A DNA stretch of 64,000 bases from assembly GCA_030429735.1 (NCBI GenBank), contig JAUIET010000007.1, forward strand, positions 179,002-243,001, given 5' to 3'. Position numbers and translations under genes: made by a program. Source of the DNA: Gammaproteobacteria bacterium. GTDB taxonomy: Bacteria; Pseudomonadota; Gammaproteobacteria; Pseudomonadales; JAUIET01. Positions 26,329 to 49,248 of the stretch are shown here, in pieces; position 1 is the stretch's first letter, and each line of letters opens with the position of its first letter. Below the pieces are notes generated by a model. It saw only the letters and a program-made list of their open reading frames with translations. It did not search any database and was not told the origin of the DNA.

Positions 26329-26409
26329 ATGACCTCTCCCCGAACCGTTTCCCGGTTGATATTCGCCTTGGCAATACCGGCATTTTTCGTTTCCCCGCTA
26401 ACAGTTGCG
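26329..26409 (+). other. predicted Sec signal peptide of the RHS protein
   Basis: 'MTSPRTVSRLIFALAIPAFFVSPLTVA|ETE': positive n-region, hydrophobic core, and an AxA-like (TVA) cleavage site. Confidence 0.6.
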
Positions 26410-29400
26410 GAGACTGAAAATGCAAGAAACAGCCAACATGAGGCTCTGAACTTTCGTACTTCTACCGCCTCAAAATCCAGCAGTGGCGGGTATTCCAGAT
26501 ACGACCGAAAGAAACGCGGTGGGCACGGCAATGGACATCACGGTGGCGGGCACCATGGCGGAGGTCATCACGGTGGTGGGCATGGGGGTAAGGCACCAAA
26601 CTGCGATGCTGCGTTCGCTTCTCCCGGAAAACTATGGCCACCCAATAATCGTTACTCAAAAGTTCGCATAGATGGTGTGGGTGGCCGCGGCACGTACGTA
26701 GCTGTGCAATGCATTACCCAGGACGAGCCGCTAAAAGCGAATAGAAAGGGACGCAAACAATACACCGCCAAGGGCATTGGTGGGTCCTCTGCCTACGTTC
26801 GCAAACAGCGGCTGGGTAGTGAAAACGGGCGGGTTTATCACATTGACTACAAGGCATGGAACCGGCATGGCCAATGTACGGGCACAGTCACAGTGGGAGT
26901 GCCAAAGAACCGCTGGAGCAAAGCGATAGACGACGGGCGCCTGGTATCTGCGGCAAAGAACAACCGCAAATGCTCGATAAGCCCAGTAAACCAGCCGCCA
27001 AGCATTAGCTCAACGCCATTGCTGAATGCCACAGCGGGGGTTGAATACAGTTATCAGGCAACGGCCACTGATCCCGACGGCGATCAGTTGACTTATTCGG
27101 TTTCACAATTGCCCGCAGGCGCAAATATTAACTCGCAAACGGGCCTGCTCAGCTGGACACCGGGTTCAGGGCAGCTCGGCGATCATAACATTGCGCTTGA
27201 AGTGAGTGATGGTCAAGGCGGAAGCGATTCTCAGAGTTTCACGCTGACCGTGGAACGGAGTAACAGTGCGCCTTTGGCGACTCCCCAGCAGCTGACGGTA
27301 AACGAAGATGGGAGCCTGGCAATCACGCTGACGGGTAGCGACTCCGACGGAGATACCTTGAGTTTCAGTGTGGGCAGTAATCCAAGTGCCGGCGTGCTAA
27401 GCGGCGAAGCACCTGCCCTGGTGTACACGCCAGCTCTGAACTTCAATGGCAGTGACAGTTTTACATTCAGCGTAAGCGATGGCGAGCTAAGCTCGGTGCC
27501 GGCATTGGTGTCTATTCAGGTTAACTCCGTTAATGACGCACCCACGGCGAATGCTCAAGCCTTGACGCTTAATGAAGACAGTACGTTGGATATTACGCTC
27601 AGCGGCAGCGACCCAGACGGCGACAGTCTCAGCTACACGCTGTTAACTCCACCAGGCCTGGGAACGATTAGTGGCACAGCGCCGAACATCCGCTATACAG
27701 CAAACGACAACATCAACGGCGATGACAACTTTACCTTTGTGGTCAGTGACGGCACCGTTGACTCGACTGAAGCGACTATCTCGCTGAGCATTCTTGCGGT
27801 AAATGACTCACCAGTGGCTAAGGATATTCAACTGGAAACCTCGGCCGGCACACCGGTTGATGTAACACTGGACTCTACTGACCCGGACCAAGACACACTA
27901 AGTTACGCTGTGGTGACTGACCCGCAAAATGGCGTGCTGAGCGGCGCCGGGCAGGCGCTGAGCTATACACCCAATGCGGGCTTTTCCGGCACAGACTCGT
28001 TCACGTACAGAAGCAATGATGGCGAGCTGAATTCCAACACCGCCACTGTGCAAATAAGCGTTGTTAGCAATAATGCGGCACCGGTAATCGGCAGCACTCC
28101 GGTAACCCAGGCAACACAAGACAGTCTGTACACCTATCAGGTGAATGCAAGTGATGATGACGGCGACCCAATAAGCTTCGCGCTGCAAACAGCACCGAGT
28201 GGCATGAGCGTTGATGCTACCAGCGGCGAGATTAGCTGGTTGCCCACAAGCTCAGACGCTACCAATGTGCTGGCAAGCAATGCACAGTGTAAAATTCCAG
28301 GGTCCGAGCAGGAAGTATTTCCAGAAGCGATGGACGCCGTGATGGTAGTTGACGGCTCACTGTCTAACTATATGGCCTGGCCATGGATGTCTTCCGCGTT
28401 GGCAGGCCTGGACGCCGATTTGCAGTTGTTGGGAATTGGTGCAAACGCGTCTTCAAATCGCTATGGGCTGATGTACTTCGGCAGCACCACCAGCGCCACA
28501 GAATTCGAGTCCGGTCTGTTTGGCGCCGTTGATGAGCTGTATGAGGCAACGTTCGATGCCGTACCACCCGGTGTTGGCGGGCGCGAGAATGGCCTGCTGG
28601 CGCTGCAGCGCACTATAGATAGTTACCCCTTCAGAGAAGATCTTCCCAAGAATTTGATCTGGATACCGGACGAGCCGCAGCAAAACAATCTGGAAAATGG
28701 TGAAACGCTCGCAGAGTTCAGGCAACGCTTGATTAATGGCAAGTTCAATGTGCATGTTGTCACTAGCTTTGACTTTGAATGCGACAATGATTCCCGATTG
28801 ATTCTCGGCCTCACCGCAGAAGGCCAGGCCTTTGTTGAAGACGGCCGTGGCGGGTTTGAGACTTGCGAGTTTGATACCAGTAAGCTTGATGACGTTTCTG
28901 ACACAGATGCCGCGTTTTTTCTGGAACCCTTTGTAAGAACCGCTCTGGCAAGCGGTGGCGGCGCCTGGAGTCTGCGTAAACTCACCCAGCCGCCCACGGC
29001 CGACGGCCCGGACATTCTGCGCGAGGCGCTAACAACTCAATTATTTGGTGCCACTGTTTCTGTTGTGGCGGAAAATCAGCAGAGTGACCTTACCGTTGCC
29101 GGTATTAGTGTTGTGCAAAGCGCGCCAGAAGAACACACAGCGCAAGTGAGTATTATCAACCGGGGGCTTGTGGCGAGCGAAACCAGTAGCGCAGTGAATA
29201 TCAGCAGTGCTGCCAACCCGGAAACTGTATTAGGCAGTGCAATAGTACCCGTCATTCAGCCAGGTGAAACGGTTCAGTTAGCAGTGCTAGTGTCTACCGC
29301 TAGCCCACCGGCAGTGATTCGGGCGGCTATTACCCCGGTGTTGAACGAATGCGATACTGCGAACAACGGCGCCAACACACCGTTCGTAACCATTGTGGCC

Positions 29401-32400
29401 AGTGACCCCAATGGCGGCGAAGACACTCAATCATTTTCAATCTCTGTAAACAACGTCAATGATGCTCCGCAAATCACATCTAACCCTGACAATACAGCAC
29501 AGGTAGGCAGAACGTTTAGCTACACTCCGCAGGTACAAGACGCAGACATTGGCGACGCACACAGCTATCGCGTGACGGGCAGTGGCATCGCGAGCATTGA
29601 CTCAATAAGCGGCGTTTTCACCGTTCAGCCGAAACAATCGGATGTTGGTACGCATAACTTTGCAATAACAGTGACTGATCTTGCTGGCGAGTCTGACACG
29701 CAATCCTTTGCGCTGACCATTGTGGGCAACTACATCACACCGTTTTTTGACGATCACCCGCGCAGCAACCGGGCAATCATCGATCAGCTGTTTCAATCAA
29801 CGCCGTCGGTAACGGCTGACCCAACCGCAGTATTGAGCTTTTCCTTATTGGAATCGCCAAGCGGCATGAGTATTGATGAATTGACCGGCACCGTTAGTTG
29901 GACACCTTCGCCAGACGATTTTGATCGCATACACCTGGTTACCATCGTGTTATCAGATCAATTCAACAATCGCGATGCTCTGTCTTTTATGGTGTTTGGC
30001 GACACAGTTAACACGCCACCCAGCATTGTGGATGAACCTGACACGCTGGCAACATTGGGAGATGCTTTCCAAACAGAGCTTGAAATAGCAGACGACAACG
30101 TGCGTGAAGATTATACGGTCTCGCTGAATACAACGACCAATGTCACGATTGACAACGCTCAACTCAATGGCCTGGACACCACCAGTATTCTTCTGAACTG
30201 GGGCAGATTCAATGTGGACGGAAGTTTTCCGCAACACATGCGGCAAACCGACCATCTTTGCCAGCATCCGGCCTCTACTCTGCCGAATGCAGCTGTGCAG
30301 TTCCGGCCACTGTGGGACGAGCAACGATTATTCATTGGCGACTTTGTACTGGCAGCACCGCTTGCTGACTCTAATGGCGACGGTCAGATCAATACTCTGG
30401 ACCGCAACTCTGTACTGATTTCATACCCTTCTGGAGACACCCGAATACTGGAAGCGCTTGATGGTATAAGCGGGCAGTCGCTATGGGTTCATGGCTTTGA
30501 ACGCAGCAGTGGCATACCCCCTTCGCGCCGGCACGCGCCCGCCATAGCGGATATTAATGGTGACGGTGTTCCCGATATCATTCAATTGGCGGAAGACAAT
30601 ACCACCTTGTTTGCAATGAGTACCGACGACGGTAGAGAGCTTTGGCGAACGAGTGAACCGGTTAGTACAGGTTTTAACACCTACGGCTACGGGCAAGTAA
30701 CGCTGACCGATATAGAGGGTGACGGCCAGCCGGAAATACTCGTTGCTTATGCGGTGTTTGATGCAAACGGCAACTTGCTGATGCGGCTGCCGGAACCGAC
30801 AGATGGCGCTGGCAGCAGTGTAGGTAGCCCGATATACCCGGTTGATCTCGATATGGATGGAGAACGAGAGCTGGTACAGGCGGGTGTTGTTCGCTCAATC
30901 AACAATAGTGAAATCTGGCGGGTTACTTTCCCCGACGGTCATAGCTCACGCCTTGCTTTCTCGGCATTTGCTAATTTCGACTCAGACCCCGAACCCGAAA
31001 TGATACTTGTTGAGCGCAGTGCGGCCGACCAGGCGGCGAGCGTCAGTCTGGTAGACAACGGCGGTGCACTGCTGTGGGGGCCGGTTGCCATCAGTGTGGT
31101 TGGCCAGCCGGTGGTGGCCGACTTTGATAGCGATGGTCAGCTGGAGATATTCGTAGCAGGCGATGAAACGCTGTTTGACCACCTGGGCAATGTTCAATGG
31201 AGTTTGAACTCACAAGGGAATTCAGACGGTGAAACCGCATTGGCCGCCGATATTCAGAACAATGGCCGCGTGGAGCTTATTCTTCATCGCGACGGTCGCA
31301 CCAGTATCATTGATGGGCTAACAGGCGCAGTTATTGTAGACGCGCTAATCGGTGCTGCAGAGTCGAGCCATATCCCTGTATTGGTGGATATCACTGGCGA
31401 TGGCAGCCCTGAGCTGATTAGTACCGACAGTCGTTCAGTGCAAGTAGCCACATACATTGGCAGCGTTGTAAACCCATCACTGCCCAATCTGGTCAATCAG
31501 CGTTGGTGGCAGGCCAACACGCTCACCAGCGATTTGCAGGTAAACCCGGTCGTTAGTACGCCTTGGGTAGACAATAATGCCGACCAATCATTGACCGTAG
31601 CCACGCGCCTGTTTGACCAGGGAATTTCCGACATACGTGTAGGCGCACCGCAAGGAAGCCGTAGTCAGATCAGCGTTGAGCTATACAACCGCGGTACGGC
31701 GGCCACAAACACCACCGTGGACGTGACTATTTACGCTGGCAATCCAGATGCCGGTGGTACGGAGCTGGCGACACAGGCTATCGGCTCGTTGGACATTAGC
31801 GAAACACGTATTCTCACTTTCCCGGTAACCGTACCCGAAGACTTTGTGGGTGAAATAGTGGCGCGCGCCGTTCCTCGTACGGCAATTACAGAATGCCAAA
31901 CCAACAACAACTCAACGTCTGCGCACCTTTTGGACGTTGTGGTTGAAGATTATGCCGGCGCCGCGTTCGTTAAGGACTTTTTACTGGGCGTACAATACGA
32001 GATTGATACTTTCAGCCTAAGCTCGCCAACACCCACTACGGCCACGGAAGGCGAAGAATTCAGTCTTCAGATTGAATTCAATCGTAGTGTAACCAGCAAA
32101 GACGACAACAACACCGCATTCTATTCGTTTACCGCCGCACCCGATGGTGCCTCGATAGACCCGCTGACTGGATTGCTCACCTGGACACCTGATTACGGCC
32201 AGGCTGGCACCCACTCCATTGCAGTCATTGCTTATCATCTGGACGGCGCGTCTCAGCGTTTCCTGAGTGTTACTGTACAGCCTTCAGCCAATACACCACC
32301 AGAGATCACCAGCACGCCAGTTACCGGCAGCCGACCGCTGGAACCCTTTGTATATGACGTGCAAGCCACCGACGCAGACGGTGATACGCTCAGCTATAGC

Positions 32401-35400
32401 CTGCCCACCGCACCAAGCGGCATGACCATCAATTCGTCCACCGGACTGATTCAATGGACACCCGATGCTGAAGGCGTGTTCAGTGTAGTGGTCAGTGTTG
32501 ATGACGGCATTTTCTCAACGACGCAAGCTTTTACGCTAACGATAGTTCTTGCCAATGAAGGCCCCGAAATTACCAGTACCCCCTCCACCAGCGTAGACGC
32601 CGGAGTCACATATCAATATCAGGTAGAAGCGACGGACCCCGAAGGTGAAGACATCAGCTATTCGTTGACCACGGCACCGCTGGGTATGAGTATCAACGAC
32701 ACTACCGGCTTGATCAGCTGGGCCACCGATCTTGCTGACGCGGGTGTGCACCCGATTGAAGTGCGTGCTACCGACGCCAGCGAGCAATTTAGCACGCAAA
32801 GCTACCAGCTGACGGTGGTTGACGCCACGCCTAATCAGCCACCGCAAATCACATCTTCCGCACCGGTCATTGCAGTGACTGGCCAGGAGTACCAGTACAG
32901 TGTGATGGCAAGCGACCCAGACGGTGACTCATTAACGTATCAATTGACCGCAGCACCTGCTGGCATGACCGTGTCACCCACGGGGCTTATCAGCTGGCAG
33001 GCCGATGTTACACAGCTGGGCTTGAACAACGCGTCGCTACGCGTTGAAGATGGGCGCGGCGGCTTCGCCACGCAAAACTTCGTTGTTGAAGTGCTCGAAG
33101 GCGGCTTGCTGGCCTTGAACCTGGGCATTACACCGGCCATTGCCGTGCAGGGTAACCCGGTCACTATTACCACCACACCGATTAATGCAGTGGCGCCGTT
33201 CACCGTAGAGCTACTGGTAAACGGCAACGCAGTAACGCTGGACAGTAATTTTCAGGCCCAGGTCGTTGAAAACTCATTGGGCGAGCACAGCGTGCAGGCA
33301 ACGCTAACAGACCCAACCGGAACAGCGATGCAAACCGGCAGTTTCACCGTACGCGAGCAAAACAACAGCGCGCCGCCGGTGGTTTCAGTGCTGCAGCCGA
33401 TGTTGGGCGATGAAGTCACCGCCGCCACCGATGTGATCATTTCCGTCACCGACGACGGCGACTTGAGCAATTGGCGTTTGGTTACCTTCGAGCGCGGTTC
33501 CGCACCCAGTGAATTTTTGGTGCTGGCGGAAGGCACTGATACCGGTGAGAACATGACCGCCGCCAGCTTCGACCCCAGCCTGCTGTTCAACGGTCAACAT
33601 GTGATTGTGCTGCAGGCCTTTGACACTGCCGGCAACGAATCGCAAGACAATGTGGTTGTTAGTGTGGATGGTGACCTGAAGGTGGGCAATTTCTCATTTA
33701 CCATTGAAGACGTAAATGTGCCATTGGCGGGCATTCCCATCGCGGTGTCTCGCACTTATGACACACGGCAAAAACACCGTAGCATGGATTTCGGTCACGG
33801 CTGGAGTGTGGATTATCAAAACGTACGCGTGCACGAGTCGCGAACCCCCGGTGCATTCTGGCAGTTGAACCAATACATGACTGGCCCGTTGGGTACCTTG
33901 CTGCGTTATTGCGTAGAACCCCAGGGCGCTCCTCTGGTGACAGTCACACTGCCAAATGGCGATGTGGAACGCTTCGAAATTGCGGCCGACCCCGTGTGTA
34001 ACGACATTGTGCCCATTCTCGACGTAACGCTTGAATTCACGCCGCTTGGCGACACACAGAGCACACTCGAAGCGCTAAATGACAATACCGCGCGGCTGGT
34101 GAATGGCGCCTTGGTAGAAGACGGTTCGTTCTCACAGCCCGTGAACCCCAGCCGATACCTGCTGACCACACGCGCTGGCTACCAATACTATCTGCACCAG
34201 GCGTTTGGTGTTGAGCAAATCATAGACCCGAATGGGCATACGATTACCTACAGCGACAGTGGCATTGTGCATTCCAGTGGCAAAGCAGTGAGCTTTACTC
34301 GCGATAGCGACGGGCGTATCACGGCAGTTACTGACCCTTCGGGTAACAGCATCAGCTACAGCTACGACAGCAACAACGACTTGCAATCAGTAAGGGAACG
34401 CGACAGCGCCGAAAGCACCTACGTGTATAACACCGAGCATGGTCTGGTGGACATGTTTGACCCACTGGGCCGGCGCCTGGTGCGCAACATCTATGATGAC
34501 GACGGTCGCCTGATTGCCCAGGAAGATGAAAACGGTGTGCGCACTGATTTCAGTCATGATCTAAGCGGGCGTCAATCCATCATCACCGACCGCAACGGCA
34601 ACACCACAATCTTTGATTACGACGAACGCGGGAATGTCACCTCGCAGACCGATGCGCTGAGTAACACACGCACCTACACCTTTGATGCGCGCGACAATCA
34701 ACTGAGCGAGACTGACCCGCTGGGCAATGAGTCTACGGCCACCTACAACAGCAATAACGACCAACTGACGCAGGTGGATGCCCTGGGCAATGAGCTGCAA
34801 TTCAGCTACAACGCGCGCGGGCAGGAAACTCAGATTACCGACGCCCGAGGCAACGTGTATCAAAACACCTATGACTCGGTAGGTAATTTGCTCTCTGTCA
34901 CCGACCCGTTAAGCAATGTGGCCGGGAACAACATCAATGCTCAAGGCCTGGTAGCCAGCACTACTGATGCCGTGGGCAACACCACCAGCTACACCTACGA
35001 CAGCGAAGGCAACAAGCTCACCGAGCTAGACGCGCAAGGCAATACGCGCTCGTACACTTACGATGCCAACAATAACGTGCTTACCGAAACGGTGAACCGT
35101 TCCGTATTCGGCGTACCCGTGGGGGAAACGACCACATTCACTTATGATTCGCGTAACCGAGTGATCAGCACCATTGACCCGCTCGGTAACCTTACTCGCA
35201 GCGAATACAATCTCGCAGACCAGGAAACCGCGCAAATTGATGCCTTGGGCCGGCGAACTGAAATGGATTACGACGTGTACGGTAATCTGCTGGAAGTGCG
35301 TTACCCAGACGGTACCAGCACGCAACATGTCTATGACGCGGAAAACAACCGAACCAGCACCACAGACCGCCTGGGCCGCACCACCAGCTTTGGTTTTGAC

Positions 35401-37935
35401 GCACTGAACCGCCTGGTTAGCACAGCGTTCCCAGACGGCAGCACCACCCGCAGCGAATACGACGCAGCCGGTCGCCTCATCACCGAGATTGACGGCAACG
35501 GCAATCGCACCAATTATCGCTACGACGAAGCAGGCCGCCGAGTGGAAGTGGAAGACGCACTCGGCAATGTGCATACCCTCATTTATGACGGCGACGGAAA
35601 CGTAACGGGTGAAATCGACGCCAATGGCGTGTTCATGTTCTATACCTTGAACGGTCTCGACCAGCGAGTGAGCACGGTGTACCAAACCGGCGACCAGGTG
35701 TTTGAGAACTTCGACGCCCTGGGCCGCAGAACCGAGCATATAGACGAGGCCGGCATTCAAACCCAGTTCGGCTACGACGAACTGGGCCGCCTAAGCCGTG
35801 TTACGGACGCGCTCGGTAACACCTCCGAATACGAGTACGACGAACTTGGCAATAAACTGGTAGAAACCACCGCCGACTTCAATCGAACCAGCTGGGAATA
35901 CGACGCCCTGGGCCGCGCCACGCGCCGAACCCTGCCGGGCGGTCAAGTTGAAACCATGGTTTACGACGCCGTGGGCAACCTCACCAGTCATACCGACTTC
36001 AACGGTGACACCACCACGCACCAATACGATGTGAACAACCGCCTGATTCAAAGTGATTTTGCTGACGGCAGTCAGGAAACGTTCGCTTACGATGCCGAAG
36101 GCAATCGAACCGCCGCCACCTACACCGTAGGCGGTACAGCGAGAAGCTGGAGTTATGGCTACGACGGACTCAACCGCCTCACTAGCGAAACACAGCCCGA
36201 CGGCACAAACCTAACGTACACCTACGACGGGGCCGGCAATAAAACTTCGCTCACGGTCACGCAAGGCGCGAGCGCGCAAATCACCCGCTACGGCTATGAC
36301 GCGCTTAATCGCCTGGCCACGGTAACCGACCCGAATGGCAACGTGAGCAGCTACAGCTATGATGCCGTAGGCAATCGCACACTCATGGCGTATCACAACG
36401 GTAATCGCACGAACTATGTATACGACGGCCGTAACCGCCTGACGCGCCTGTCCACGACCGACAGCAGCAGCGAGGTTCTGCAACAATTCGACTACACCCT
36501 GCACCCAACCGGTCGGCGAACGCAGATTGATGAAGCCAACGGCAGAAGCACAAGCTATGGCTACGACGTGCTGTACCGGCTCACCAGTGAATCGATAAGC
36601 GATGCGGTAAATGGCGATTACACGGCAAGCTACAGCTACGACGCTGTAGGCAACCGTACTCAGTCTGTGATTGATGGCGTGACGACAGCGTACAGTTACG
36701 ACGAGAACAACCGCCTGACGCAACAAGGCGGGACTGTTTACAGCTACGACAGCCAGGGTAATACGCTCAGCGAAACGCTGGACGGAAATACCGTTAGCTA
36801 TAGCTACAACAGCCAGCATGAACTGATCGAACGCACCGATGCCAGCGGCTCAACGCTGTTTGAATACAACGCCGACGGCATTCGCACCGCGAAATCCGAA
36901 GGTGGAACAACAACGGCATTCACCATCGACAGCAATCGCGATTATGCACAAGTTATCCGTCAGAGTGACGGTGCAAGCAGCAGAGAGTATGTGTATGGCG
37001 ACGATCTAATCAGTCAAACGCTGGATGGTGTGGAGAGTGTGTATCACTATGATGGTTTGGGCAGTACCCGAAGCTTAAGTGATGCGGCAGGGAATCTGAC
37101 TGATAGCTATAACTATGAGGCTTTTGGGACTTTGTTGAATCAGACGGGGAGTACGGATAATAGCTATTTGTTTACGGGGGAACAGTTTGATGGAACGTTG
37201 GGGCAGTACTATCTCAGAGCGCGGTACTACGACCAAGGGGTAGGGCGGTTTACGCAGATGGATACGTGGATGGGTATTGGCATTGAACCAATAACGCTGA
37301 ATAAAAATCTCTACGCAGAATCAGATCCAGTCAATAACGTCGATCCGCTTGGCTTGTTTACCCTCCATGATTTTACGGCTGCCCAGAATACGCAAGCCGT
37401 AAACGCTACATTGAATCTAGCAGGGGCAGCGGTAATTTTTAGCAGTTCATTGGATTCGATGTCCTCCGGAGCATCCCAGAATTCGACTGCTTCCGGTATT
37501 AGGTGCCTATCAGCCGTCGTAGAATCTACGATGGGGATGCGAGCACCAAAAAATGCAAACGAAGAAAGAGAGTGCGGAGATCTAAATCAGATGCGAGCAC
37601 AATGGCAACAAGGAACATCTCCGATTGATGTTAGTGTTGTGTTGACAAATTTCCCAAACAGAGGAGTTTCCGTTCGGCAGGTCCAAGCTGGATTAAATCA
37701 GATATACTTAAGGCGAAGCGAACCAAATTGGTGGCCGTCGGCTTCATCGGGTTTAGACAGATGGATGTATGACAGTATCATCAGTCTAAGCAAAACGCTT
37801 AATGGTTTCCCACCTCATGGAGTGCCAGAGTTCACCACCGGGACGATTCTGACCAAACAGACAACTTACCGAAGTAAAAATTTCCGCATTGATATTGAAA
37901 ATATCCGAGGTAACAACCTTAAAAGATTGCACTAG
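26329..37935 (+). CDS. giant secreted RHS/YD-repeat polymorphic toxin with adhesin-like N-terminal region
   Basis: Uninterrupted 3868-aa ORF. In order it contains:
- a Sec signal peptide
- a His/Gly tract
- cadherin-like/He_PIG-type repeats ('ATDPDGDQLTYS...GLLSWTP')
- three ~95-aa 'NDAP...' repeats
- a DxSxS (VVDGSLS) vWA-like segment
- CARDB-like segments
- about 8 FG-GAP/VCBS blades ('DINGDGVPDI', 'DIEGDGQPEI', 'DFDSDGQLEI', 'DITGDGSPEL')
- dozens of YD repeats ('YxYDxxGNxxxxxD')
- the RHS core end 'RARYYDQGVGRFTQMD...DPVNNVDPLGL'. Confidence 0.9.
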   Translation: MTSPRTVSRLIFALAIPAFFVSPLTVAETENARNSQHEALNFRTSTASKSSSGGYSRYDRKKRGGHGNGHHGGGHHGGGHHGGGHGGKAPNCDAAFASPGKLWPPNNRYSKVRIDGVGGRGTYVAVQCITQDEPLKANRKGRKQYTAKGIGGSSAYVRKQRLGSENGRVYHIDYKAWNRHGQCTGTVTVGVPKNRWSKAIDDGRLVSAAKNNRKCSISPVNQPPSISSTPLLNATAGVEYSYQATATDPDGDQLTYSVSQLPAGANINSQTGLLSWTPGSGQLGDHNIALEVSDGQGGSDSQSFTLTVERSNSAPLATPQQLTVNEDGSLAITLTGSDSDGDTLSFSVGSNPSAGVLSGEAPALVYTPALNFNGSDSFTFSVSDGELSSVPALVSIQVNSVNDAPTANAQALTLNEDSTLDITLSGSDPDGDSLSYTLLTPPGLGTISGTAPNIRYTANDNINGDDNFTFVVSDGTVDSTEATISLSILAVNDSPVAKDIQLETSAGTPVDVTLDSTDPDQDTLSYAVVTDPQNGVLSGAGQALSYTPNAGFSGTDSFTYRSNDGELNSNTATVQISVVSNNAAPVIGSTPVTQATQDSLYTYQVNASDDDGDPISFALQTAPSGMSVDATSGEISWLPTSSDATNVLASNAQCKIPGSEQEVFPEAMDAVMVVDGSLSNYMAWPWMSSALAGLDADLQLLGIGANASSNRYGLMYFGSTTSATEFESGLFGAVDELYEATFDAVPPGVGGRENGLLALQRTIDSYPFREDLPKNLIWIPDEPQQNNLENGETLAEFRQRLINGKFNVHVVTSFDFECDNDSRLILGLTAEGQAFVEDGRGGFETCEFDTSKLDDVSDTDAAFFLEPFVRTALASGGGAWSLRKLTQPPTADGPDILREALTTQLFGATVSVVAENQQSDLTVAGISVVQSAPEEHTAQVSIINRGLVASETSSAVNISSAANPETVLGSAIVPVIQPGETVQLAVLVSTASPPAVIRAAITPVLNECDTANNGANTPFVTIVASDPNGGEDTQSFSISVNNVNDAPQITSNPDNTAQVGRTFSYTPQVQDADIGDAHSYRVTGSGIASIDSISGVFTVQPKQSDVGTHNFAITVTDLAGESDTQSFALTIVGNYITPFFDDHPRSNRAIIDQLFQSTPSVTADPTAVLSFSLLESPSGMSIDELTGTVSWTPSPDDFDRIHLVTIVLSDQFNNRDALSFMVFGDTVNTPPSIVDEPDTLATLGDAFQTELEIADDNVREDYTVSLNTTTNVTIDNAQLNGLDTTSILLNWGRFNVDGSFPQHMRQTDHLCQHPASTLPNAAVQFRPLWDEQRLFIGDFVLAAPLADSNGDGQINTLDRNSVLISYPSGDTRILEALDGISGQSLWVHGFERSSGIPPSRRHAPAIADINGDGVPDIIQLAEDNTTLFAMSTDDGRELWRTSEPVSTGFNTYGYGQVTLTDIEGDGQPEILVAYAVFDANGNLLMRLPEPTDGAGSSVGSPIYPVDLDMDGERELVQAGVVRSINNSEIWRVTFPDGHSSRLAFSAFANFDSDPEPEMILVERSAADQAASVSLVDNGGALLWGPVAISVVGQPVVADFDSDGQLEIFVAGDETLFDHLGNVQWSLNSQGNSDGETALAADIQNNGRVELILHRDGRTSIIDGLTGAVIVDALIGAAESSHIPVLVDITGDGSPELISTDSRSVQVATYIGSVVNPSLPNLVNQRWWQANTLTSDLQVNPVVSTPWVDNNADQSLTVATRLFDQGISDIRVGAPQGSRSQISVELYNRGTAATNTTVDVTIYAGNPDAGGTELATQAIGSLDISETRILTFPVTVPEDFVGEIVARAVPRTAITECQTNNNSTSAHLLDVVVEDYAGAAFVKDFLLGVQYEIDTFSLSSPTPTTATEGEEFSLQIEFNRSVTSKDDNNTAFYSFTAAPDGASIDPLTGLLTWTPDYGQAGTHSIAVIAYHLDGASQRFLSVTVQPSANTPPEITSTPVTGSRPLEPFVYDVQATDADGDTLSYSLPTAPSGMTINSSTGLIQWTPDAEGVFSVVVSVDDGIFSTTQAFTLTIVLANEGPEITSTPSTSVDAGVTYQYQVEATDPEGEDISYSLTTAPLGMSINDTTGLISWATDLADAGVHPIEVRATDASEQFSTQSYQLTVVDATPNQPPQITSSAPVIAVTGQEYQYSVMASDPDGDSLTYQLTAAPAGMTVSPTGLISWQADVTQLGLNNASLRVEDGRGGFATQNFVVEVLEGGLLALNLGITPAIAVQGNPVTITTTPINAVAPFTVELLVNGNAVTLDSNFQAQVVENSLGEHSVQATLTDPTGTAMQTGSFTVREQNNSAPPVVSVLQPMLGDEVTAATDVIISVTDDGDLSNWRLVTFERGSAPSEFLVLAEGTDTGENMTAASFDPSLLFNGQHVIVLQAFDTAGNESQDNVVVSVDGDLKVGNFSFTIEDVNVPLAGIPIAVSRTYDTRQKHRSMDFGHGWSVDYQNVRVHESRTPGAFWQLNQYMTGPLGTLLRYCVEPQGAPLVTVTLPNGDVERFEIAADPVCNDIVPILDVTLEFTPLGDTQSTLEALNDNTARLVNGALVEDGSFSQPVNPSRYLLTTRAGYQYYLHQAFGVEQIIDPNGHTITYSDSGIVHSSGKAVSFTRDSDGRITAVTDPSGNSISYSYDSNNDLQSVRERDSAESTYVYNTEHGLVDMFDPLGRRLVRNIYDDDGRLIAQEDENGVRTDFSHDLSGRQSIITDRNGNTTIFDYDERGNVTSQTDALSNTRTYTFDARDNQLSETDPLGNESTATYNSNNDQLTQVDALGNELQFSYNARGQETQITDARGNVYQNTYDSVGNLLSVTDPLSNVAGNNINAQGLVASTTDAVGNTTSYTYDSEGNKLTELDAQGNTRSYTYDANNNVLTETVNRSVFGVPVGETTTFTYDSRNRVISTIDPLGNLTRSEYNLADQETAQIDALGRRTEMDYDVYGNLLEVRYPDGTSTQHVYDAENNRTSTTDRLGRTTSFGFDALNRLVSTAFPDGSTTRSEYDAAGRLITEIDGNGNRTNYRYDEAGRRVEVEDALGNVHTLIYDGDGNVTGEIDANGVFMFYTLNGLDQRVSTVYQTGDQVFENFDALGRRTEHIDEAGIQTQFGYDELGRLSRVTDALGNTSEYEYDELGNKLVETTADFNRTSWEYDALGRATRRTLPGGQVETMVYDAVGNLTSHTDFNGDTTTHQYDVNNRLIQSDFADGSQETFAYDAEGNRTAATYTVGGTARSWSYGYDGLNRLTSETQPDGTNLTYTYDGAGNKTSLTVTQGASAQITRYGYDALNRLATVTDPNGNVSSYSYDAVGNRTLMAYHNGNRTNYVYDGRNRLTRLSTTDSSSEVLQQFDYTLHPTGRRTQIDEANGRSTSYGYDVLYRLTSESISDAVNGDYTASYSYDAVGNRTQSVIDGVTTAYSYDENNRLTQQGGTVYSYDSQGNTLSETLDGNTVSYSYNSQHELIERTDASGSTLFEYNADGIRTAKSEGGTTTAFTIDSNRDYAQVIRQSDGASSREYVYGDDLISQTLDGVESVYHYDGLGSTRSLSDAAGNLTDSYNYEAFGTLLNQTGSTDNSYLFTGEQFDGTLGQYYLRARYYDQGVGRFTQMDTWMGIGIEPITLNKNLYAESDPVNNVDPLGLFTLHDFTAAQNTQAVNATLNLAGAAVIFSSSLDSMSSGASQNSTASGIRCLSAVVESTMGMRAPKNANEERECGDLNQMRAQWQQGTSPIDVSVVLTNFPNRGVSVRQVQAGLNQIYLRRSEPNWWPSASSGLDRWMYDSIISLSKTLNGFPPHGVPEFTTGTILTKQTTYRSKNFRIDIENIRGNNLKRLH
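33682..37356 (+). other. RHS/YD-repeat shell region ending in the DPxGL cleavage motif
   Basis: Runs from 'VGNFSFTIEDVNVPLAGIPIAVSRTYDTR' (plug-like start) through continuous YD repeats to 'DPLGL' (37342-37356). Confidence 0.8.
37357..37932 (+). other. C-terminal polymorphic toxin domain of unknown family
   Basis: 192 aa after DPLGL ('FTLHDFTAAQNT...RIDIENIRGNNLKRLH'). Visibly more AT-rich than the RHS core. I recognise no nuclease, deaminase or ART motif. Confidence 0.6.
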
Positions 37936-38399
37936 TGAATAGAGACGAGTTAGTACGAACAGTAACATATGGGTTGAAAGATGGATCGTCGGCCATTGAT
38001 TCGCTTCGCCTTGGTGTTTCGATCATAGAAAAAATTAGGGGTAAAGCACCTGACCACACCTGGCCGCCCTCAGTTCTCGATGCTGATTTCTCAGAAGATG
38101 ACGCTAAGATGCTGATCGATTCTGTTAAAAACTTCCTAGATACAGTGGATAAAGGCGATGTGGCAGTTGGAACGGCGATATGGTTCCTTCAAAAAACATA
38201 TGATTCTAGCTTGCTGCCAATGCTTAATAGCTTGCTAGCCGTACTTGTCGAGGAGAACCAAGGTGCTGTATTTCAGTGTCTTTATGCAATTCAATCACTA
38301 GGCGGCGTGCTGCCAAATGAAGTGGTGTCTTCTCTGGATATTGAGGGGAATATGGTGACGGCCCGGGAATACATATCAAAAGGGTCGACAATAAGCTAA
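37935..38399 (+). CDS. putative cognate immunity protein of the RHS toxin
   Basis: The GTG start overlaps the toxin TAG stop by 1 nt (TAGTG at 37933-37937). 154 aa, no signal peptide, helical-looking, and the same AT-shifted composition. This is the canonical position for an immunity gene. Confidence 0.6.
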   Translation: MNRDELVRTVTYGLKDGSSAIDSLRLGVSIIEKIRGKAPDHTWPPSVLDADFSEDDAKMLIDSVKNFLDTVDKGDVAVGTAIWFLQKTYDSSLLPMLNSLLAVLVEENQGAVFQCLYAIQSLGGVLPNEVVSSLDIEGNMVTAREYISKGSTIS

Positions 38400-38419
38400 C
38401 TATGTAGCTAGCTGCACAT

Positions 38420-38751
38420 AAAATCGCATGGACAGGTAAAATCGCATGGACAGGCACTTCGAATAATATTTTTCGGAAGTATGGGGACCAGAAGTATGGG
38501 GCCAGAGTAAAAACTCTGGAGCTGTTCAAGGGGCGCAGATAAAATAGCAGGAACATCAGGAGGTTGATTCAAGGAACAAGAGCCAACTGGACAGGCACAA
38601 ACCAATTGATAAGCGGAGGCAACCAAATCGCAGGGACAGGCAATTCGAATAATATTTTTCATATTTTTCGCAATTGACTGGACAGGCACAAACCAATTCT
38701 GGGCCGCAGAACCGAGTGAGCAATTGACTGGACAGGCACAAACCAATTGAC
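38420..38751 (+). repeat. array of GGACAGG(C/T)-core repeats upstream of the RAYT-like gene
   Basis: Seven core copies in + orientation:
- 'AAAATCGCATGGACAGG' x2 (38420, 38438)
- 'AAATCGCA(T/G)GGACAGGCA(C/A)TTCGAATAATATTTTTC' x2 (38439-38475, 38625-38661)
- 'CAATTGACTGGACAGGCACAAACCAATT' x2 perfect (38671-38698, 38721-38748), plus a variant at 38583-38608. Confidence 0.85.
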
Positions 38752-38807
38752 TCCATGATTTAGCGCTTGTACGATAAAACCACTACTTAATCGTTAAAGG
38801 ACTAACG

Positions 38808-39755
38808 ATGCCTAGACCACGCAAGGAATTGGTATCCATTGCGGATACACCTTATTACCACATCGTTTCACGCTGCGTCCGTCGCACCTTCTTGTGCGGT
38901 TTTGATGAAGAAACTCAAGTCAGTTATGAGCACCGCCGCGAGTGGATCGAAACGCGAATACGCTTACTTACATCCGTGTTCGCGGTCGATGTATGTGCTT
39001 ACGCGGTGATGAGCAATCACTACCACATCGTTCTGAAGCTGGAACCTAAGCAAGCGGACGAATGGACTGACGATGACGTTCTTGAGCGCTGGCAAGTACT
39101 GTATAGAGGGACGCTGCTGGTTCAACGCTATGCACGCGGTGAGCCTCTGAATTGTATTGAATATCAGCAAGTTACAGACACATTAGCGATCTACCGTGAT
39201 CGCCTCAAAGACCTAAGTTGGTTTATGAAAAGCCTCAATGAACCCATCGCACGGCAGGCCAACAAGGAGGACGGCTGCACTGGGCATTTCTGGGAAGCAC
39301 GTTTTAAGTCGCAAGCGCTGCGCAGTAATGCAGCTTTGCTGTCATGCATGGCATACGTGGATCTGAACCCAGTCAGAGCAAGTATGGCACAATCACCTGA
39401 AGAATCAGAATACACAAGTATTAAGGAGCGTGTTGCACCTACTGATGATAAAGAACTACGTAACAGATCCGAAGACTTTACCGTCCCGGTCAAACCCCTT
39501 GCCAAATTTGCAGGATCACTACGGAAGGATGAAGAAGCGGTCATACCGTGCAGATTTGAAGAATACCTTGAGTTGATTGACTGGACCGGTCGAAGAATTC
39601 GCGGTGACAAACGCGGTGCAATCCCCGTGCACCTTGCGCCAATATTGAACCGATTGGGCATGAGAAGAGATCAATGGTTGCGAAATAGTACGCAATTTGA
39701 ATTGATTGGGAATATGGACACAGCGCCAAAGCAACCCCGACTAGCGAGTGGCTAG
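38808..39755 (+). CDS. Y1 HUH tyrosine transposase, RAYT / IS200-like (COG1943-type) with C-terminal extension
   Basis: 'PYYHIVSRCVRRTFLCG', the HUH motif 'SNHYHIVL' (HYH at 39018-39026), and the catalytic-Tyr motif 'AYVDLNPVRA' (Tyr at 39354-39356). Confidence 0.8.
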   Translation: MPRPRKELVSIADTPYYHIVSRCVRRTFLCGFDEETQVSYEHRREWIETRIRLLTSVFAVDVCAYAVMSNHYHIVLKLEPKQADEWTDDDVLERWQVLYRGTLLVQRYARGEPLNCIEYQQVTDTLAIYRDRLKDLSWFMKSLNEPIARQANKEDGCTGHFWEARFKSQALRSNAALLSCMAYVDLNPVRASMAQSPEESEYTSIKERVAPTDDKELRNRSEDFTVPVKPLAKFAGSLRKDEEAVIPCRFEEYLELIDWTGRRIRGDKRGAIPVHLAPILNRLGMRRDQWLRNSTQFELIGNMDTAPKQPRLASG

Positions 39756-39940
39756 GGTCAAGACATCGAGGCGATTCGATACACGAGCTTTCTAACCGCT
39801 TGCGATTGTTGGTGCTTCGATTGCCGATTTATGATCAAAATCGACAAGAATTCTCCTCCGTCAATGTTCTCAACTGGTAAAAGAGGACCGCTTGTTGTTT
39901 GAGCTGCTGGATTACTAAGCGTTCCGTTTTAATTTGTGCA

Positions 39941-39999
39941 TGTCCACACCCATCGCCTGTCCACACCCATCGCCCACACCCATCGCCCACACCCATCGG
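39941..39999 (-). repeat. tandem repeat (TGTC)CACACCCATCGCC x4 containing the inverted GTGGACAGGC core
   Basis: TGTCCACACCCATCGCC at 39941-39957 and 39958-39974. CACACCCATCGCC at 39975-39987. CACACCCATCGG at 39988-39999. Confidence 0.85.
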
Positions 40000-40084
40000 A
40001 ATTAGCAGATTATTTACAAACGCCAATACCTATTTCGCTGATGGTTGCTTAGACTGGGCGTCTTCGTAATGTTGCAGAGCGTGT

Positions 40085-42289
40085 GTGGTGGCTATCAAGA
40101 TCGTCAAATGGTGCGTTTACGTGCTTGTAATTTTATTCCTATTGATAGCGGCCTCGCTGGCGTTTGTGTTGATGGCCCCAAGTCGTGCCGTCGCACTGGT
40201 GGAGTTTGCAACAGGCTATAAAGTGACAGCGCTTGACATTAACACCAGCACATCGGCTCTGAGTGCCGATGGCTTATGGGTGCGCGCACCGGATGGTCGT
40301 GATTTGCTGCGAGCCGATGAGTTTCACTCAGGTATTGACGCCCTGGGTGCCTGGCGTGGCACGGCACCTTTCTGGGATATCCGAATTCGTAATGCCGACG
40401 TGTACCTGACAGCTTCCTCCGAGCAGCCAGGCCCGGCGACACAGCCCGCTGCGGCCCTGGACTTTGCACGTATTTTGGGCGCGCGATCGGTTGACATTGA
40501 CTCATTGACTGTCCACGCCGGTGAAAGTCAGACACAATATTCATTGGCGCTTCAGCGCGTTGATGATAATACGCTGACGATGCAGGCAACAGTGGGTGAT
40601 GAGCTAGCTGTGAATGGCACGCTTAAATATCAGTTAGATGCGCGCACGCAGCTTACATTCCAGCTACCCGAGCTGGACCTGCGAGCACTTTTGACCGCGA
40701 GCTCGTCACCATCGTCTGGCGAAGATGCGGTAGGCGCGAGTGAAGCGGTCATGGACTGGTCCTGGTTAGGTATGCTTCGAAACACTGACCTAAGTGTGGG
40801 ATTGGCCAAGCTCTTACTGCCAGCACAGACCCTCAATGACGCAAACGCGACGCTCACGTTTGCAGAAAACGGTGTGGGTCTGGAGCTAAAGCTGGGGTCG
40901 TTAAGGTCTACATCCGACGCAGACATAAGCATTCAAGACCTGGTTATGCAGGCCGACCTGACCACCCTGGCGCGTAACACCCAGCAGCAAGATCTAAAAG
41001 GTAGAGTCACGCTGAAGAGCGAGGGGGTGGAATTCAGTGCTGAGGGCGAATTCAATGTAAACGGCGCGAATGGTAACGCACTGGCATTGGCGCTCAGTCT
41101 CGCGCCTCAGTCAAGTCTTGCCGTCGTGCTGCCTTCGGCTGTGGCGCCTTATTTACCTGCTCGTTTGCAAACCGATCTGCTCATTGACGCGGGGAATTAT
41201 CAAATTGGCGACCTGCAAGCAACATTTGCTGAGTCTGATCTGGCGGGGTCGCTTTCCTTCGCTTTGCTAAACGATGCACCGGTTTTACAGGCCAGACTGC
41301 GAAGTAAAACGCTGGTGCTGCTGAATGCAAACGAAGACGATTCTGCAGAACCGCAAGGCGCTGAAGACGAGGATGCATCAACCGGTAACAAAGACAAGAT
41401 CTTCAACGAAGAGCCATTAGACTGGTCGTGGCTGGAATATGGCAGCGTAGATGTAGAGCTTGAGGCTGAGGTCCTACGGTTGTATGAAGCTCGCTTTAGC
41501 GATTTCACACTGATGCTCAAGGGCGAGCAAGGTAACTTGACCGTCAAGCCCTTGAGTGCGACGTTTGGCGGTGGTGGATTTTCCGGGTCGGCCAGTATCG
41601 AGAAAATTGAATCCGGTGCAGCCAGTAAAGTAACGTTTGAAATGAGCGGCGTCGACCTGGAGGCTTTTGGCGTGGTACCGCAGCAGCAGCAGCTGGCGGG
41701 CGGTAAGACCTCGCTTGAGCTGGATTTGAATACCAAGGGCAATACATCGGCAGAAATGGCTAGTGCCTTGCACGGTACCATGCATCTATTAGTGCACGAC
41801 GCGGTTGTTCAGAACGACAGTTTTGAATTAATTGGCTCCGATATTTTGTTGGAAACATTGAATAAGCTGAACCCTTTTGCAAAAACGGACCCCACCACCA
41901 AACTACACTGCGCACTTGTCCATTTCGACATAAGCGATGGCCAGATGAAGACAGATAAAGCGCTGGTGGTCGAAACCGAAAAGATGGAAATCATAGGTGA
42001 TGGCAGCATTAATCTGGCCGATGAAACGCTGGATATACTGGTTACACCGAATGCTAAACAAACGGTGGGGCTGAACGTGGGCAGCGTGGTCAAGTTTATG
42101 AAGCTTGGTGGTACGCTCGCCAATCCAAGCCCGGCGGTTGACGCTGGTGGCCTGCTCAAGAGTGGTGCAAGCATTGGTGCGGCTATGTCCACGGGGGGTG
42201 TGTCTTTGCTCGCTGAGAACCTGGTAAAGAAGGTGTCTGAACAAAACGCCTGTCGCAAATCACTCTTAGCGGCGGGAGCTGGCAAGTAA
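40085..42289 (+). CDS. AsmA-family protein
   Basis: 734 aa. Single N-terminal TM anchor 'VYVLVILFLLIAASLAFVLMA' and a long beta-rich body. The C-terminal region ('KTDKALVVETEKMEIIGDGSINLADETLD...') is typical of AsmA-like C-terminal domains. GTG start. Confidence 0.6.
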   Translation: MVAIKIVKWCVYVLVILFLLIAASLAFVLMAPSRAVALVEFATGYKVTALDINTSTSALSADGLWVRAPDGRDLLRADEFHSGIDALGAWRGTAPFWDIRIRNADVYLTASSEQPGPATQPAAALDFARILGARSVDIDSLTVHAGESQTQYSLALQRVDDNTLTMQATVGDELAVNGTLKYQLDARTQLTFQLPELDLRALLTASSSPSSGEDAVGASEAVMDWSWLGMLRNTDLSVGLAKLLLPAQTLNDANATLTFAENGVGLELKLGSLRSTSDADISIQDLVMQADLTTLARNTQQQDLKGRVTLKSEGVEFSAEGEFNVNGANGNALALALSLAPQSSLAVVLPSAVAPYLPARLQTDLLIDAGNYQIGDLQATFAESDLAGSLSFALLNDAPVLQARLRSKTLVLLNANEDDSAEPQGAEDEDASTGNKDKIFNEEPLDWSWLEYGSVDVELEAEVLRLYEARFSDFTLMLKGEQGNLTVKPLSATFGGGGFSGSASIEKIESGAASKVTFEMSGVDLEAFGVVPQQQQLAGGKTSLELDLNTKGNTSAEMASALHGTMHLLVHDAVVQNDSFELIGSDILLETLNKLNPFAKTDPTTKLHCALVHFDISDGQMKTDKALVVETEKMEIIGDGSINLADETLDILVTPNAKQTVGLNVGSVVKFMKLGGTLANPSPAVDAGGLLKSGASIGAAMSTGGVSLLAENLVKKVSEQNACRKSLLAAGAGK

Positions 42290-47798: not shown

Positions 47799-48359
<561 letters not shown>

Positions 48360-48371
48360 CTATTGGTGCGA

Positions 48372-48684
48372 GGGCTGGAGCGAAGGACTGGAGTGGACAG
48401 GCACACACGGCGGCGGACTGGAGTGGGACTGGAGTGGACAGGCACACAAGCGACTAGGACTGGAGCGACTGGAGTAGTCGGACTGGAGTGGACAGGCACA
48501 CACAGGGACTGGAGTGGACAGGCACACACGGCAGTCAAAGACTGGAGTGGAAGACTGGAGTGGACAGGCACACACAGCAGTTAATTGGACAGGCACAGGA
48601 CTGGAGTGGACAGGCAGAGTAGTTAGGCAGAGTAGTTAATTCAGTTTGGAGCGACTGGAGTAGTTAATTGGACAGGCACACAAG
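48372..48684 (+). repeat. array of at least 8 direct GACTGGAGTGGACAGGCACACA repeats (GGACAGGC core) in the rsmD-coaD spacer
   Basis: Full copies start at 48386, 48427, 48481, 48507 and 48553. Truncated or variant copies are at 48585, 48599 and 48668. They are interspersed with partial GACTGGAG(TGG) and GAGTAGTTA sub-units, all in one orientation. Confidence 0.9.
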
Positions 48685-49248
48685 CTGGTAGCAGTTGTTG
48701 CCGGCATTGAGTGTTTTGTTAACACTGAGCGCCGGAGGTAGTAAGGGCTTACTACCCGCTTCACATTCAATATACATACACCCATCTGCAGCGAGCATAT
48801 TATTGTTCAACACAGCGTCAATACTTGGCTGCAGCAACCCGGAATGGTACGGAGGGTCGATAAATACAATGTCAAAAGGCGATGCCGACTGGCCTGACCG
48901 CTCAATCCAACTCAAAAACGCCTGCTGGTGCACACTGGCAGCAGTGGCTTCAAGAGTGAGCAAATGGTGCCGGAGCTGCTGGCAAACTTGGGTGGATAGG
49001 TCCACAAAAGTGGCCTCAGCCGCGCCACGTGACAGGCACTCCAGGCCTAGCGCGCCACTGCCACAATACGCGTCCAGCACCCGCGCGCCAGCTAATTGGG
49101 GGTGCAACCAGTTGAAAACGGTTTCACGAACCCTGTCTGGCGTGGGCCGCAATCCCTCGATTGGTGGAAATTCCAGTTTACGCCGCCGCCAACGACCACC
49201 GATAATGCGCACAGTATTGTTTGCCTTGTTGTCTGCTTTACGACTCAT
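48664..49248 (-). CDS. rsmD: 16S rRNA (guanine966-N2)-methyltransferase RsmD
   Basis: 'VRIIGGRWRRRKLEFPPIEGLRPTPDRVRETVFNWL', 'LDAYCGSGALGLECLSRGA' and the 'DPPY' motif. The last 6 codons and the stop lie inside a repeat unit. Confidence 0.88.
   Translation of the reverse strand: MSRKADNKANNTVRIIGGRWRRRKLEFPPIEGLRPTPDRVRETVFNWLHPQLAGARVLDAYCGSGALGLECLSRGAAEATFVDLSTQVCQQLRHHLLTLEATAASVHQQAFLSWIERSGQSASPFDIVFIDPPYHSGLLQPSIDAVLNNNMLAADGCMYIECEAGSKPLLPPALSVNKTLNAGNNCYQLVCLSN

Follow-up and report, generated by a model that had tools for sequence, protein, structure and literature searches.

The closest described relatives of the locus reported here are the TIRtrons, in which a gene (TIRYT) resembling those of the REP-associated tyrosine transposases (RAYTs; REP, repetitive extragenic palindrome) is flanked by terminal inverted repeats (TIRs) with a GGGGWSAS-type motif, and whose TIRs also occur as single, dimeric or grouped copies (Di Nocera, De Gregorio and Rocco 2013, PMC3733652). 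In the reference survey of single-tyrosine transposases (TnpAY1; Quentin, Siguier, Chandler and Fichant 2018, PMC6006769), the published TIRYTs (26 examples) fall in subclasses 2.1, 2.2 and 2.5 and none in subclass 2.3, and automatic and manual searches alike turned up no repeats for subclasses 2.1 and 2.3. Here a 64,000-nt stretch of a gammaproteobacterial assembly (contig JAUIET010000007.1, positions 179,002 to 243,001; hereafter the window, numbered from its first base) was analysed. It holds a locus that is probably a discrete ~1.2-kb unit (~38729-39946), bounded by TIRs, encoding a subclass 2.3 single-tyrosine (Y1) HUH transposase that acts on single-stranded DNA (ssDNA), and accompanied by arrays of end copies. 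A 10-11-nt core, (T/G)GGACA(G/T)GCAC, stands on the coding strand just outside the promoter and again, inverted, ~190 nt past the stop codon. Extra end modules extend outward from each end in the orientation of that end, and gene-less arrays are found elsewhere.

The transposase gene (38808..39755, + strand), supported by its open reading frame (ORF), domain matches, homologue alignment and fold match, encodes 315 residues, as a first-pass annotation made from the sequence alone had stated. That annotation had called the product RAYT-like, a Y1 HUH protein in which both catalytic signatures are kept, and this is upheld: the translation shows SNHYHIV, HFWEARF and YVDLNPVRA, with the HUH motif N70-H71-Y72-H73 encoded at 39015-39026 (H71-Y-H73 at 39018-39026) and the single catalytic tyrosine, Y183, opening YVDLNPVRA at 39354-39356. 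Both the motif and Y183 are invariant among 97 aligned homologues, 110 residues separate H73 from Y183, and the gene is intact, with all family-invariant residues kept. Residues 16-82 match Pfam Y1_Tnp, with a score exactly at threshold, and residues 135-202 match NCBIfam REP_Tyr_transpos, below threshold; since the two matches cover separate residues, the catalytic core is split by an insertion. The C-terminal ~110 residues are helical and conserved in the homologue alignment; no Pfam family matched them, nor did this domain draw a match of its own in the full-length fold search.

The homologue search returned at least 8000 scored candidates, all significant. The closest among the matches listed, at 62-63% identity, are from Ectothiorhodospira, Marinobacter and Neptuniibacter, and some genomes hold several paralogues; within the window there is one copy of the gene. 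Plasmid records yielded only 18 matches, mostly chromids and at most 50% identical, and thus no evidence for plasmid-borne spread. Searching PDB sequences with the protein and with its profile gave nothing useful. An AlphaFold model from a shallow 26-sequence alignment reached a pLDDT (predicted local distance difference test score) of 54 and was discarded; the 97-sequence alignment, built after a second homologue search with a distant family member, gave an AlphaFold2 model with a pLDDT of 85.5 and a pTM (predicted template modelling score) of 0.84. Among PDB structures this model matches 4er8_A best (E 7.7e-05, probability 1.00), the complex of E. coli TnpA-REP with a REP hairpin; the IS200, ISDra2 and IS608 transposases come next. 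The HUH motif, the single catalytic tyrosine, which in this superfamily sits on a C-terminal helix, and the HUH fold resembling that of RNA recognition motifs place the protein in the Y1 HUH transposase superfamily.

By motifs and architecture compared with the published table, the window protein fits the TnpAY1 subclass 2.3 type: it has the NHYH, WE and YVDLNP motifs, the length, the spacing from HUH motif to tyrosine, the split core, and a C-terminal domain without Pfam match. For this subclass, the survey (PMC6006769) gives a median length of 325 residues, a HUH-to-tyrosine distance of ~110 residues owing to a conserved ~55-residue insertion, a specific C-terminal domain, hosts in Chromatiales and Alteromonadales, and ~3.9 copies per genome on average at ~75% identity. 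The likeness thus extends from motifs, ~325-residue length, ~110-residue spacing and C-terminal domain to the gammaproteobacterial hosts and the presence of several diverged copies per genome. The distinct RAYT or repeat class that the first-pass annotation had suggested is not borne out, as the protein fits this catalogued subclass (PMC6006769). Unlike the subclass as published, for which no repeats were found, the window gene and most of its relatives are surrounded by conserved inverted end cores and arrays.

The core is strongly concentrated around the gene and at one further place. GGACAGGY occurs 18 times in the window, compared with 3.55 +/- 1.77 in 100 dinucleotide-preserving shuffles (maximum 8; 0/100 reaching 18), and 15 of these 18 matches lie within the intergenic segments 38400-38807, 39756-40084 and 48287-48663, which together take up 1.7% of the window (~1.1 kb). 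No 10-12-mer of the window is more over-represented than the core (T/G)GGACAGGCAC, TGGACAGGCACA is the most frequent 12-mer (10 copies), and one exact 21-mer occurs 3 times with 0 expected. The left TIR, TGGACAGGCACAAACCAATTGA (38729..38750, +), has its core at 38729-38739, 78 nt before the ATG. The right TIR core, TGGACATGCAC on the - strand (39936..39946), has its outer end 191 nt past the stop codon, and a second, outer copy, TGGACAGGCGA, follows on the same strand (39953..39963). Comparing 38729-38750 with the reverse complement of 39925-39946, 13 of the first 14 positions match. The gene is hence flanked on its two sides by one core in opposite orientations, as the first-pass annotation had it. 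Between stop codon and right end lies a non-coding inner segment (39756..39935, +), whose length class is kept in relatives (~145-240 nt) and whose sequence is not.

Upstream, where seven copies had been counted, there are actually six on the + strand (38430, 38448, 38589, 38634, 38680 and 38730), of which the first is a GGACAGGT variant. They are set in two kinds of unit, A (AAATCGCA-core-TTCGAATAATATTTTTC, two copies) and B (GCAATTGAC-core-AAACCAATT, three copies). The distal left array (38420..38475, +) shows unit A as AAATCGCA-TGGACAGGT and as AAATCGCA-TGGACAGGCAC-TTCGAATAATATTTTTC, with cores at 38429-38439 (GGACAGGT) and 38447-38457. A core TGGACAGGCAC of the unit B type (38588..38598, +), continuing into AAACCAATT, is followed by a second copy of unit A (38625..38660, +; core GGGACAGGCAA at 38633-38643), which is 94% identical to 38439-38474, and by a unit B copy, GCAATTGAC-TGGACAGGCAC-AAACCAATT (38670..38698, +; core at 38679-38689), which duplicates the true left end on its outer side. 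Downstream, a tandem array of the complementary core had been described. GCCTGTCCAC in fact occurs only once (39955-39964; exact reverse complement of the core at 39955-39962), with one variant, GCATGTCCAC, at 39938-39947 (GTGCATGTCC at 39936-39945), and the unit is really the 17/13-nt (GCMTGTC)CACACCCATC, whose last two copies are without the core. This short tandem repeat, seeded at the right end (39938..40000, +), comprises two 17-nt units, GC(A/C)TGTCCACACCCATC, then two 13-nt units without TGTC. Its unit CCACACCCATCGC also contains, in direct orientation, CACACCCAT, which is one base off the end core of the distant clade of this protein family, (G)GACACCCAT; this resemblance could be a coincidence or the relic of a second type of element.

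The end geometry recurs across the family. Relatives were gathered by a scan of one genome per species, from which 80 loci (homologues 48-61% identical) were taken, the best among at least 585 confirmed relatives. Among 79 loci, the 600 nt upstream of the gene hold 29 exact copies of GGACAGGC in the orientation of the gene and 2 in the reverse one; the 600 nt downstream hold 54, all of them on the strand opposite to the gene. At many loci the nearest upstream copy is at -75 to -80 (-78 in the window) and the inverted copy 140-210 nt past the stop codon (191 nt in the window). With the pattern loosened to RGACA-NN-CA, a proximal copy is present in the left flank of ~61 of 83 loci and in the right flank of ~69 of 83, against a chance level of ~2-3% of flanks of that size (our own estimate, assuming equal base frequencies); it lies ~75-100 nt before the ATG (median -86) and, inverted, ~145-240 nt past the stop codon. 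When the best inverted repeat shared by left and right flank was sought without a preset motif, the window core emerged in the window's relatives and a related core, (G)GACACCCA(C/T), in more distant loci. Moreover, the variable NN follows the protein clade, being GG or TG in 45 of 50 ends of the window's clade and mainly CC, TC or GC in the others. The geometry thus recurs in most of these relatives, with clade-specific variants of the core.

Evidence of movement comes from Neptuniibacter marinus, whose 3.76-Mb chromosome carries three copies of the element at 1.26, 2.08 and 2.37 Mb. By inspection of a MAFFT alignment, the three loci are near-identical and their flanks unrelated. The shared stretch runs from GGGGACAGGCACCCTTAAATTGACA on the left (GGGGACAGGCAC...) to AAAAGTGCATGTCCCTG(T/C)TTATT on the right (...GTGCATGTCCCTGTTTATT), and homology between the copies stops ~6-9 nt outside the cores. 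As near-identical copies end a few bases beyond the cores, the unit is discrete and TIR-bounded, and by these alignments it is, or was recently, mobile as a block. Since the homology passes the cores by ~6-9 nt, and since array units in other genomes hold ~8-10 nt of end-specific outer sequence, the core is probably subterminal. The G-to-T variant at the window's right end, GGACATGCAC, is also used at the N. marinus right ends. Within the N. marinus copies, the 57-nt left end is tandemly duplicated, the right end is triplicated and the 3' half-element is duplicated (a tandem partial duplication, at L081; L numbers denote individual loci). Group II intron reverse-transcriptase genes (RVT_1/GIIM) lie at most 1-2 kb from two of the three copies (L081 and L083).

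In layout, the unit is close to the TIRtrons (PMC3733652): its gene is flanked by inverted repeats at roughly constant distances rather than by REP hairpins, and copies of its ends are also found elsewhere, for example in the gene-less 8-core array at 48394-48679. Of the 8 positions of the GGGGWSAS consensus, the window's TGGACAG and GGGACAG fit 6-7 and the N. marinus GGGGACAG all 8. A further tie comes from three metagenome loci (L117, L129 and L101) whose shorter, gene-linked proteins are 2.1-like, being without the subclass 2.3 insertion (NHVH/YIHQNP) and, in L117 and L129, matching Y1_Tnp in one piece; the same core flanks these genes in the same geometry, which ties the subclass 2.3 ends to the TIRYT/TIRtron elements. 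Unlike the TIRYTs of the sister subclass 2.1, subclass 2.3 proteins are without the DnaA_C/HTH tail, and their gene-to-right-end spacing is longer.

The gene-less array (48380..48680, +) consists of eight cores in one orientation, starting at 48394, 48435, 48489, 48515, 48561, 48586, 48607 and 48669, with GGACTGGAG-TGGACAGGCAC-ACA as the usual unit. This second, larger array was missed by the first-pass annotation; no transposase gene adjoins it. Its neighbours are a coaD-like ORF (~47799-48286, -) and an rsmD-like ORF (48664-49248, -). The last core (48669-48679) encodes the final residues of the latter, ...VCLSN, followed by the stop codon, and from this reading frame the array appears to have rewritten the 3' end of the rsmD-like gene. 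In several relatives, outward arrays are again made of the locus's own end in that end's orientation (9 copies in L016, 8 in L023, 5 in L025, and 3 each in L007 and L015), and their units carry end-derived flanks; for example, the units of L016 equal the L016 right end. Duplications of left and right ends are seen in L081, L082 and L009, and gene-less core clusters lie a few kb from the gene in many relatives' loci. The GC skew of the window is weak (+0.024 overall) and gives no orientation of the arrays relative to replication.

Similar arrays are widespread in metagenomes. A scan for two direct cores 8-38 nt apart found at least 120 loci, of which the first 120 were examined. The same 10-mer is present in contigs of 29-78% GC. 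Neighbouring cores form 256 direct and 14 inverted pairs in these loci, at least 120 of the direct pairs being there by ascertainment, so that inverted doublets like those of miniature inverted-repeat transposable elements, which had been considered as a candidate, are rare on this count. A Y1-like ORF was seen in the stretch retrieved for only 15 of the 120 loci. Two loci show a different arrangement: in L146, a contig of 1304 nt, 6 + cores and 8 - cores enclose a PIN-domain protein together with a small ORF that is weakly ribbon-helix-helix-like (a VapBC-like pair), and in L203 inverted arrays bracket cysE-like acetyltransferase and glutathione S-transferase-like genes. Inspection of the ORF translations ruled out both as hidden transposase loci.

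The repeats of the window were compared with REPs, which are GT[AG]G-tagged imperfect palindromes in alternating clusters (bacterial interspersed mosaic elements, BIMEs, and the REP doublets termed REPINs). The locus is like a REPtron, the unit of E. coli TnpA-REP (RayT; 4ER8), in the top structural match of its catalytic core and in the inverted repeats on either side of its gene, further copies of which are scattered and clustered outside genes. Unlike a REPtron, it has a non-palindromic core and almost purely direct arrays, and its protein is about twice as long as E. coli TnpA-REP. The non-palindromic nature of the repeats had been noted at first pass and is upheld: as ssDNA, the ends and arrays fold no better than shuffles (z from -0.6 to +1.9), and stems flanking the cores are at most 3 bp, apart from a weak CAATTG pair. 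REP-type hairpins at the window repeats were rejected on these z values and because no GT[AG]G-plus-hairpin unit is present. The layout is that of a TIRtron and not, as first proposed, the defining one of a REP/RAYT unit. The only significant local structure of the repeat region is at 38575-38700, which folds better than shuffles (z -2.9) and includes an imperfect palindrome (38636-38682; GGCAATTCGAATAATAT...ATATTTTTCGCAATTGAC) between two left-array units.

A subset of the metagenomic arrays behaves differently. In L099, L111, L117, L122, L131, L162, L164 and others, perfect 6-11-bp hairpins, with stems that vary by locus, display the invariant core in their loop, and stems of at least 6 bp surround the metagenomic cores in 9.1% of 503 units, compared with 0.7% in controls. 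No such loop display was seen at the window copies, and at gene-linked subclass 2.3 ends it does not reach significance. Within this subset only, the display of a core in loops on variable stems recalls the origin hairpins of HUH Rep proteins in rolling-circle plasmids and ssDNA viruses. Unlike HUH Rep proteins, Y1 transposases are to our knowledge not known to replicate DNA.

Inside the left end, a promoter-like TTGACT-17 nt-TACGAT (38747..38775, +; 9 of 12 promoter positions matching) starts 8 nt inside the left core. The placement recurs in relatives: in 26 of 62 loci TTGAC is found no more than 26 nt inward of the proximal core, and in 2 of 62 on its outer side. Downstream of it, the 7-bp hairpin ATCGTTA-AAGGAC-TAACGAT (38790..38809, +; -6.0 kcal/mol) holds the Shine-Dalgarno sequence in its loop, and its 3' arm takes in the AT of the start codon. 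Counterparts at the ribosome-binding site (RBS), with different stem sequences, are present in 28 of 85 loci, compared with 4.7 +/- 1.9 in shuffles. This hairpin is a probable translational control element of the transposase, resembling by analogy the translational control of IS200, and the promoter abutting the left core together with the hairpin over RBS and start codon would probably keep expression low. No Rfam family matched anywhere in the window.

A mechanism may be proposed on this basis. The transposase would recognise the core as its cognate subterminal end sequence, and the HUH-bound metal and Tyr183 would serve to cut and rejoin a single DNA strand, roughly 8-10 nt beyond the core. 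Subterminal recognition with cleavage some bases away is probably a likeness to the IS200/IS605 insertion sequences (IS), such as those of the IS608 and ISDra2 TnpA, with which the protein also shares the Y1 HUH fold and the unit an RBS-sequestering hairpin as in IS200. The arrays would be by-products, single end modules having been inserted or copied beside an existing core and possibly expanded by slippage, and they may take for this family the role that REP and BIME clusters have for RAYTs.

Several observations weigh against a mobile, TIR-bounded subclass 2.3 unit. The exact termini are placed only to within several bases. The Y1 enzyme of IS608 works on one strand with same-strand hairpins, a mode of action that does not account for inverted ends. 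A Y1 gene was lacking within the few kb retrieved for 105 of the 120 metagenomic array loci, and replication slippage or recombination could maintain or enlarge arrays in the absence of the enzyme. Furthermore, the C-terminal tail of the window protein departs from the basic tail of its relatives, and the right core of the window differs from the left one by one base.

Other explanations were weighed against the same evidence. The locus might be a true REPtron, as the first-pass annotation read it, in which a domesticated single-copy RAYT, itself immobile, maintains a dispersed, unusual, non-palindromic class of REP. The inverted flanking geometry, the dispersal of the same core to a gene-less intergenic array, the mostly gene-less arrays of metagenomes, the single gene copy in 64 kb and the fold match to TnpA-REP all agree with it. 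We nevertheless hold it to be unlikely, given that no GT[AG]G tag is present and no hairpin beats shuffles, that no REP was found for subclass 2.3 by Quentin et al. (PMC6006769), that ~3.9 copies per genome (PMC6006769) is an IS-like and not a domesticated number, and that the homologous unit of N. marinus exists in at least three near-identical copies with defined ends. Many identical copies with defined ends had been named in that annotation as the mark of an ordinary IS200/IS605 element, and this is partly seen in that relative, where the unit behaves like an insertion sequence. An ordinary IS200/IS605 insertion sequence is still contradicted by the tyrosine motif and the structure of the ends and deserves hardly any credence, even with the Pfam Y1_Tnp match, the multiple copies in N. 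marinus and the RBS-occluding hairpin that recalls IS200. Elements of that family have same-strand subterminal hairpins, a Y-x3-Q tyrosine motif, a protein of ~150 residues and often tnpB, whereas here the ends are inverted repeats without significant same-strand subterminal hairpins, the motif is Y-x3-NP (YVDLNP), the protein has 315 residues with a 55-residue insertion and a C-terminal domain, and no tnpB is present; such proteins are moreover placed in class 2 and not in subclass 1.1 (PMC6006769).

The core repeats could instead be operator or iteron sites, bound by the protein itself or a host factor, or slippage-prone tandem repeats, and not transposon ends at all. The proximal left core does abut the -35 box, the arrays are direct repeats with irregular, iteron-like spacing, and a 13-17-nt tandem repeat is found at the right end. 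Against it stand the inverted copy at a conserved distance past the stop codon (~69 of 83 loci), the end of homology between N. marinus copies at the cores, the covariation of the core variant with the protein clade at both ends, and the identical 10-mer across contigs of 29-78% GC, and we regard this explanation as very improbable. Only the shortness of the core speaks for a chance or low-complexity artefact, which is refuted, and its likelihood practically negligible, in view of 18 matches against 3.55 expected with no shuffle of 100 reaching 18, three occurrences of an exact 21-mer against none expected, and the core at the same positions in dozens of unrelated genomes.

As to its surroundings, the unit lies directly downstream of a toxin-like gene pair and before an AsmA-family gene (40085-42289). 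The region upstream (26329-38399) holds a 3868-residue ORF that has RHS repeats near its C-terminus (the last 499 residues were scanned), followed by a 154-residue ORF without Pfam match, whose start at 37935 is the last base of the preceding stop codon. In this arrangement, the pair resembles a polymorphic toxin gene followed by that of its immunity protein.

A protein of a known subclass thus stands in a known kind of layout, that of the TIRtron, and so in a described but little-studied kind of element. Literature searches on TIRYT and TnpAY1 found nothing beyond PMC6006769 and PMC3733652, and a search with the core sequence returned only unrelated primers; the published literature found does not link subclass 2.3 to conserved inverted cores or arrays. 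As the published survey had found no repeats (PMC6006769), this link is a modest addition. A bolder reading, possible but doubtful at present, is that GGACAGGCAC is a deeply conserved recognition or nick sequence of the TIRYT clade (subclasses 2.1 and 2.3), and that its same-orientation arrays are a widespread, essentially undescribed class of bacterial interspersed repeats arising from one-ended, strand-specific copy-in by a Y1 enzyme. If true, this would be a mode of proliferation unlike both REPIN doublets and the 'peel and paste' of IS608.

For annotation, two repeat-rich intergenic regions of the window are explained, and the rsmD-like ORF cautions that array copies may rewrite the 3' ends of genes. 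Subclass 2.3 is one of two large TnpAY1 groups without a DNA partner in the reference survey, where its function was left open (PMC6006769); the conserved, clade-specific cores give its proteins a concrete candidate substrate for tests in vitro and join the subclass to the TIRtron concept. Arrays that run in one direction and a widespread, invariant 10-mer, furthermore, offer a tractable case for how HUH Y1 enzymes seed short interspersed repeats.

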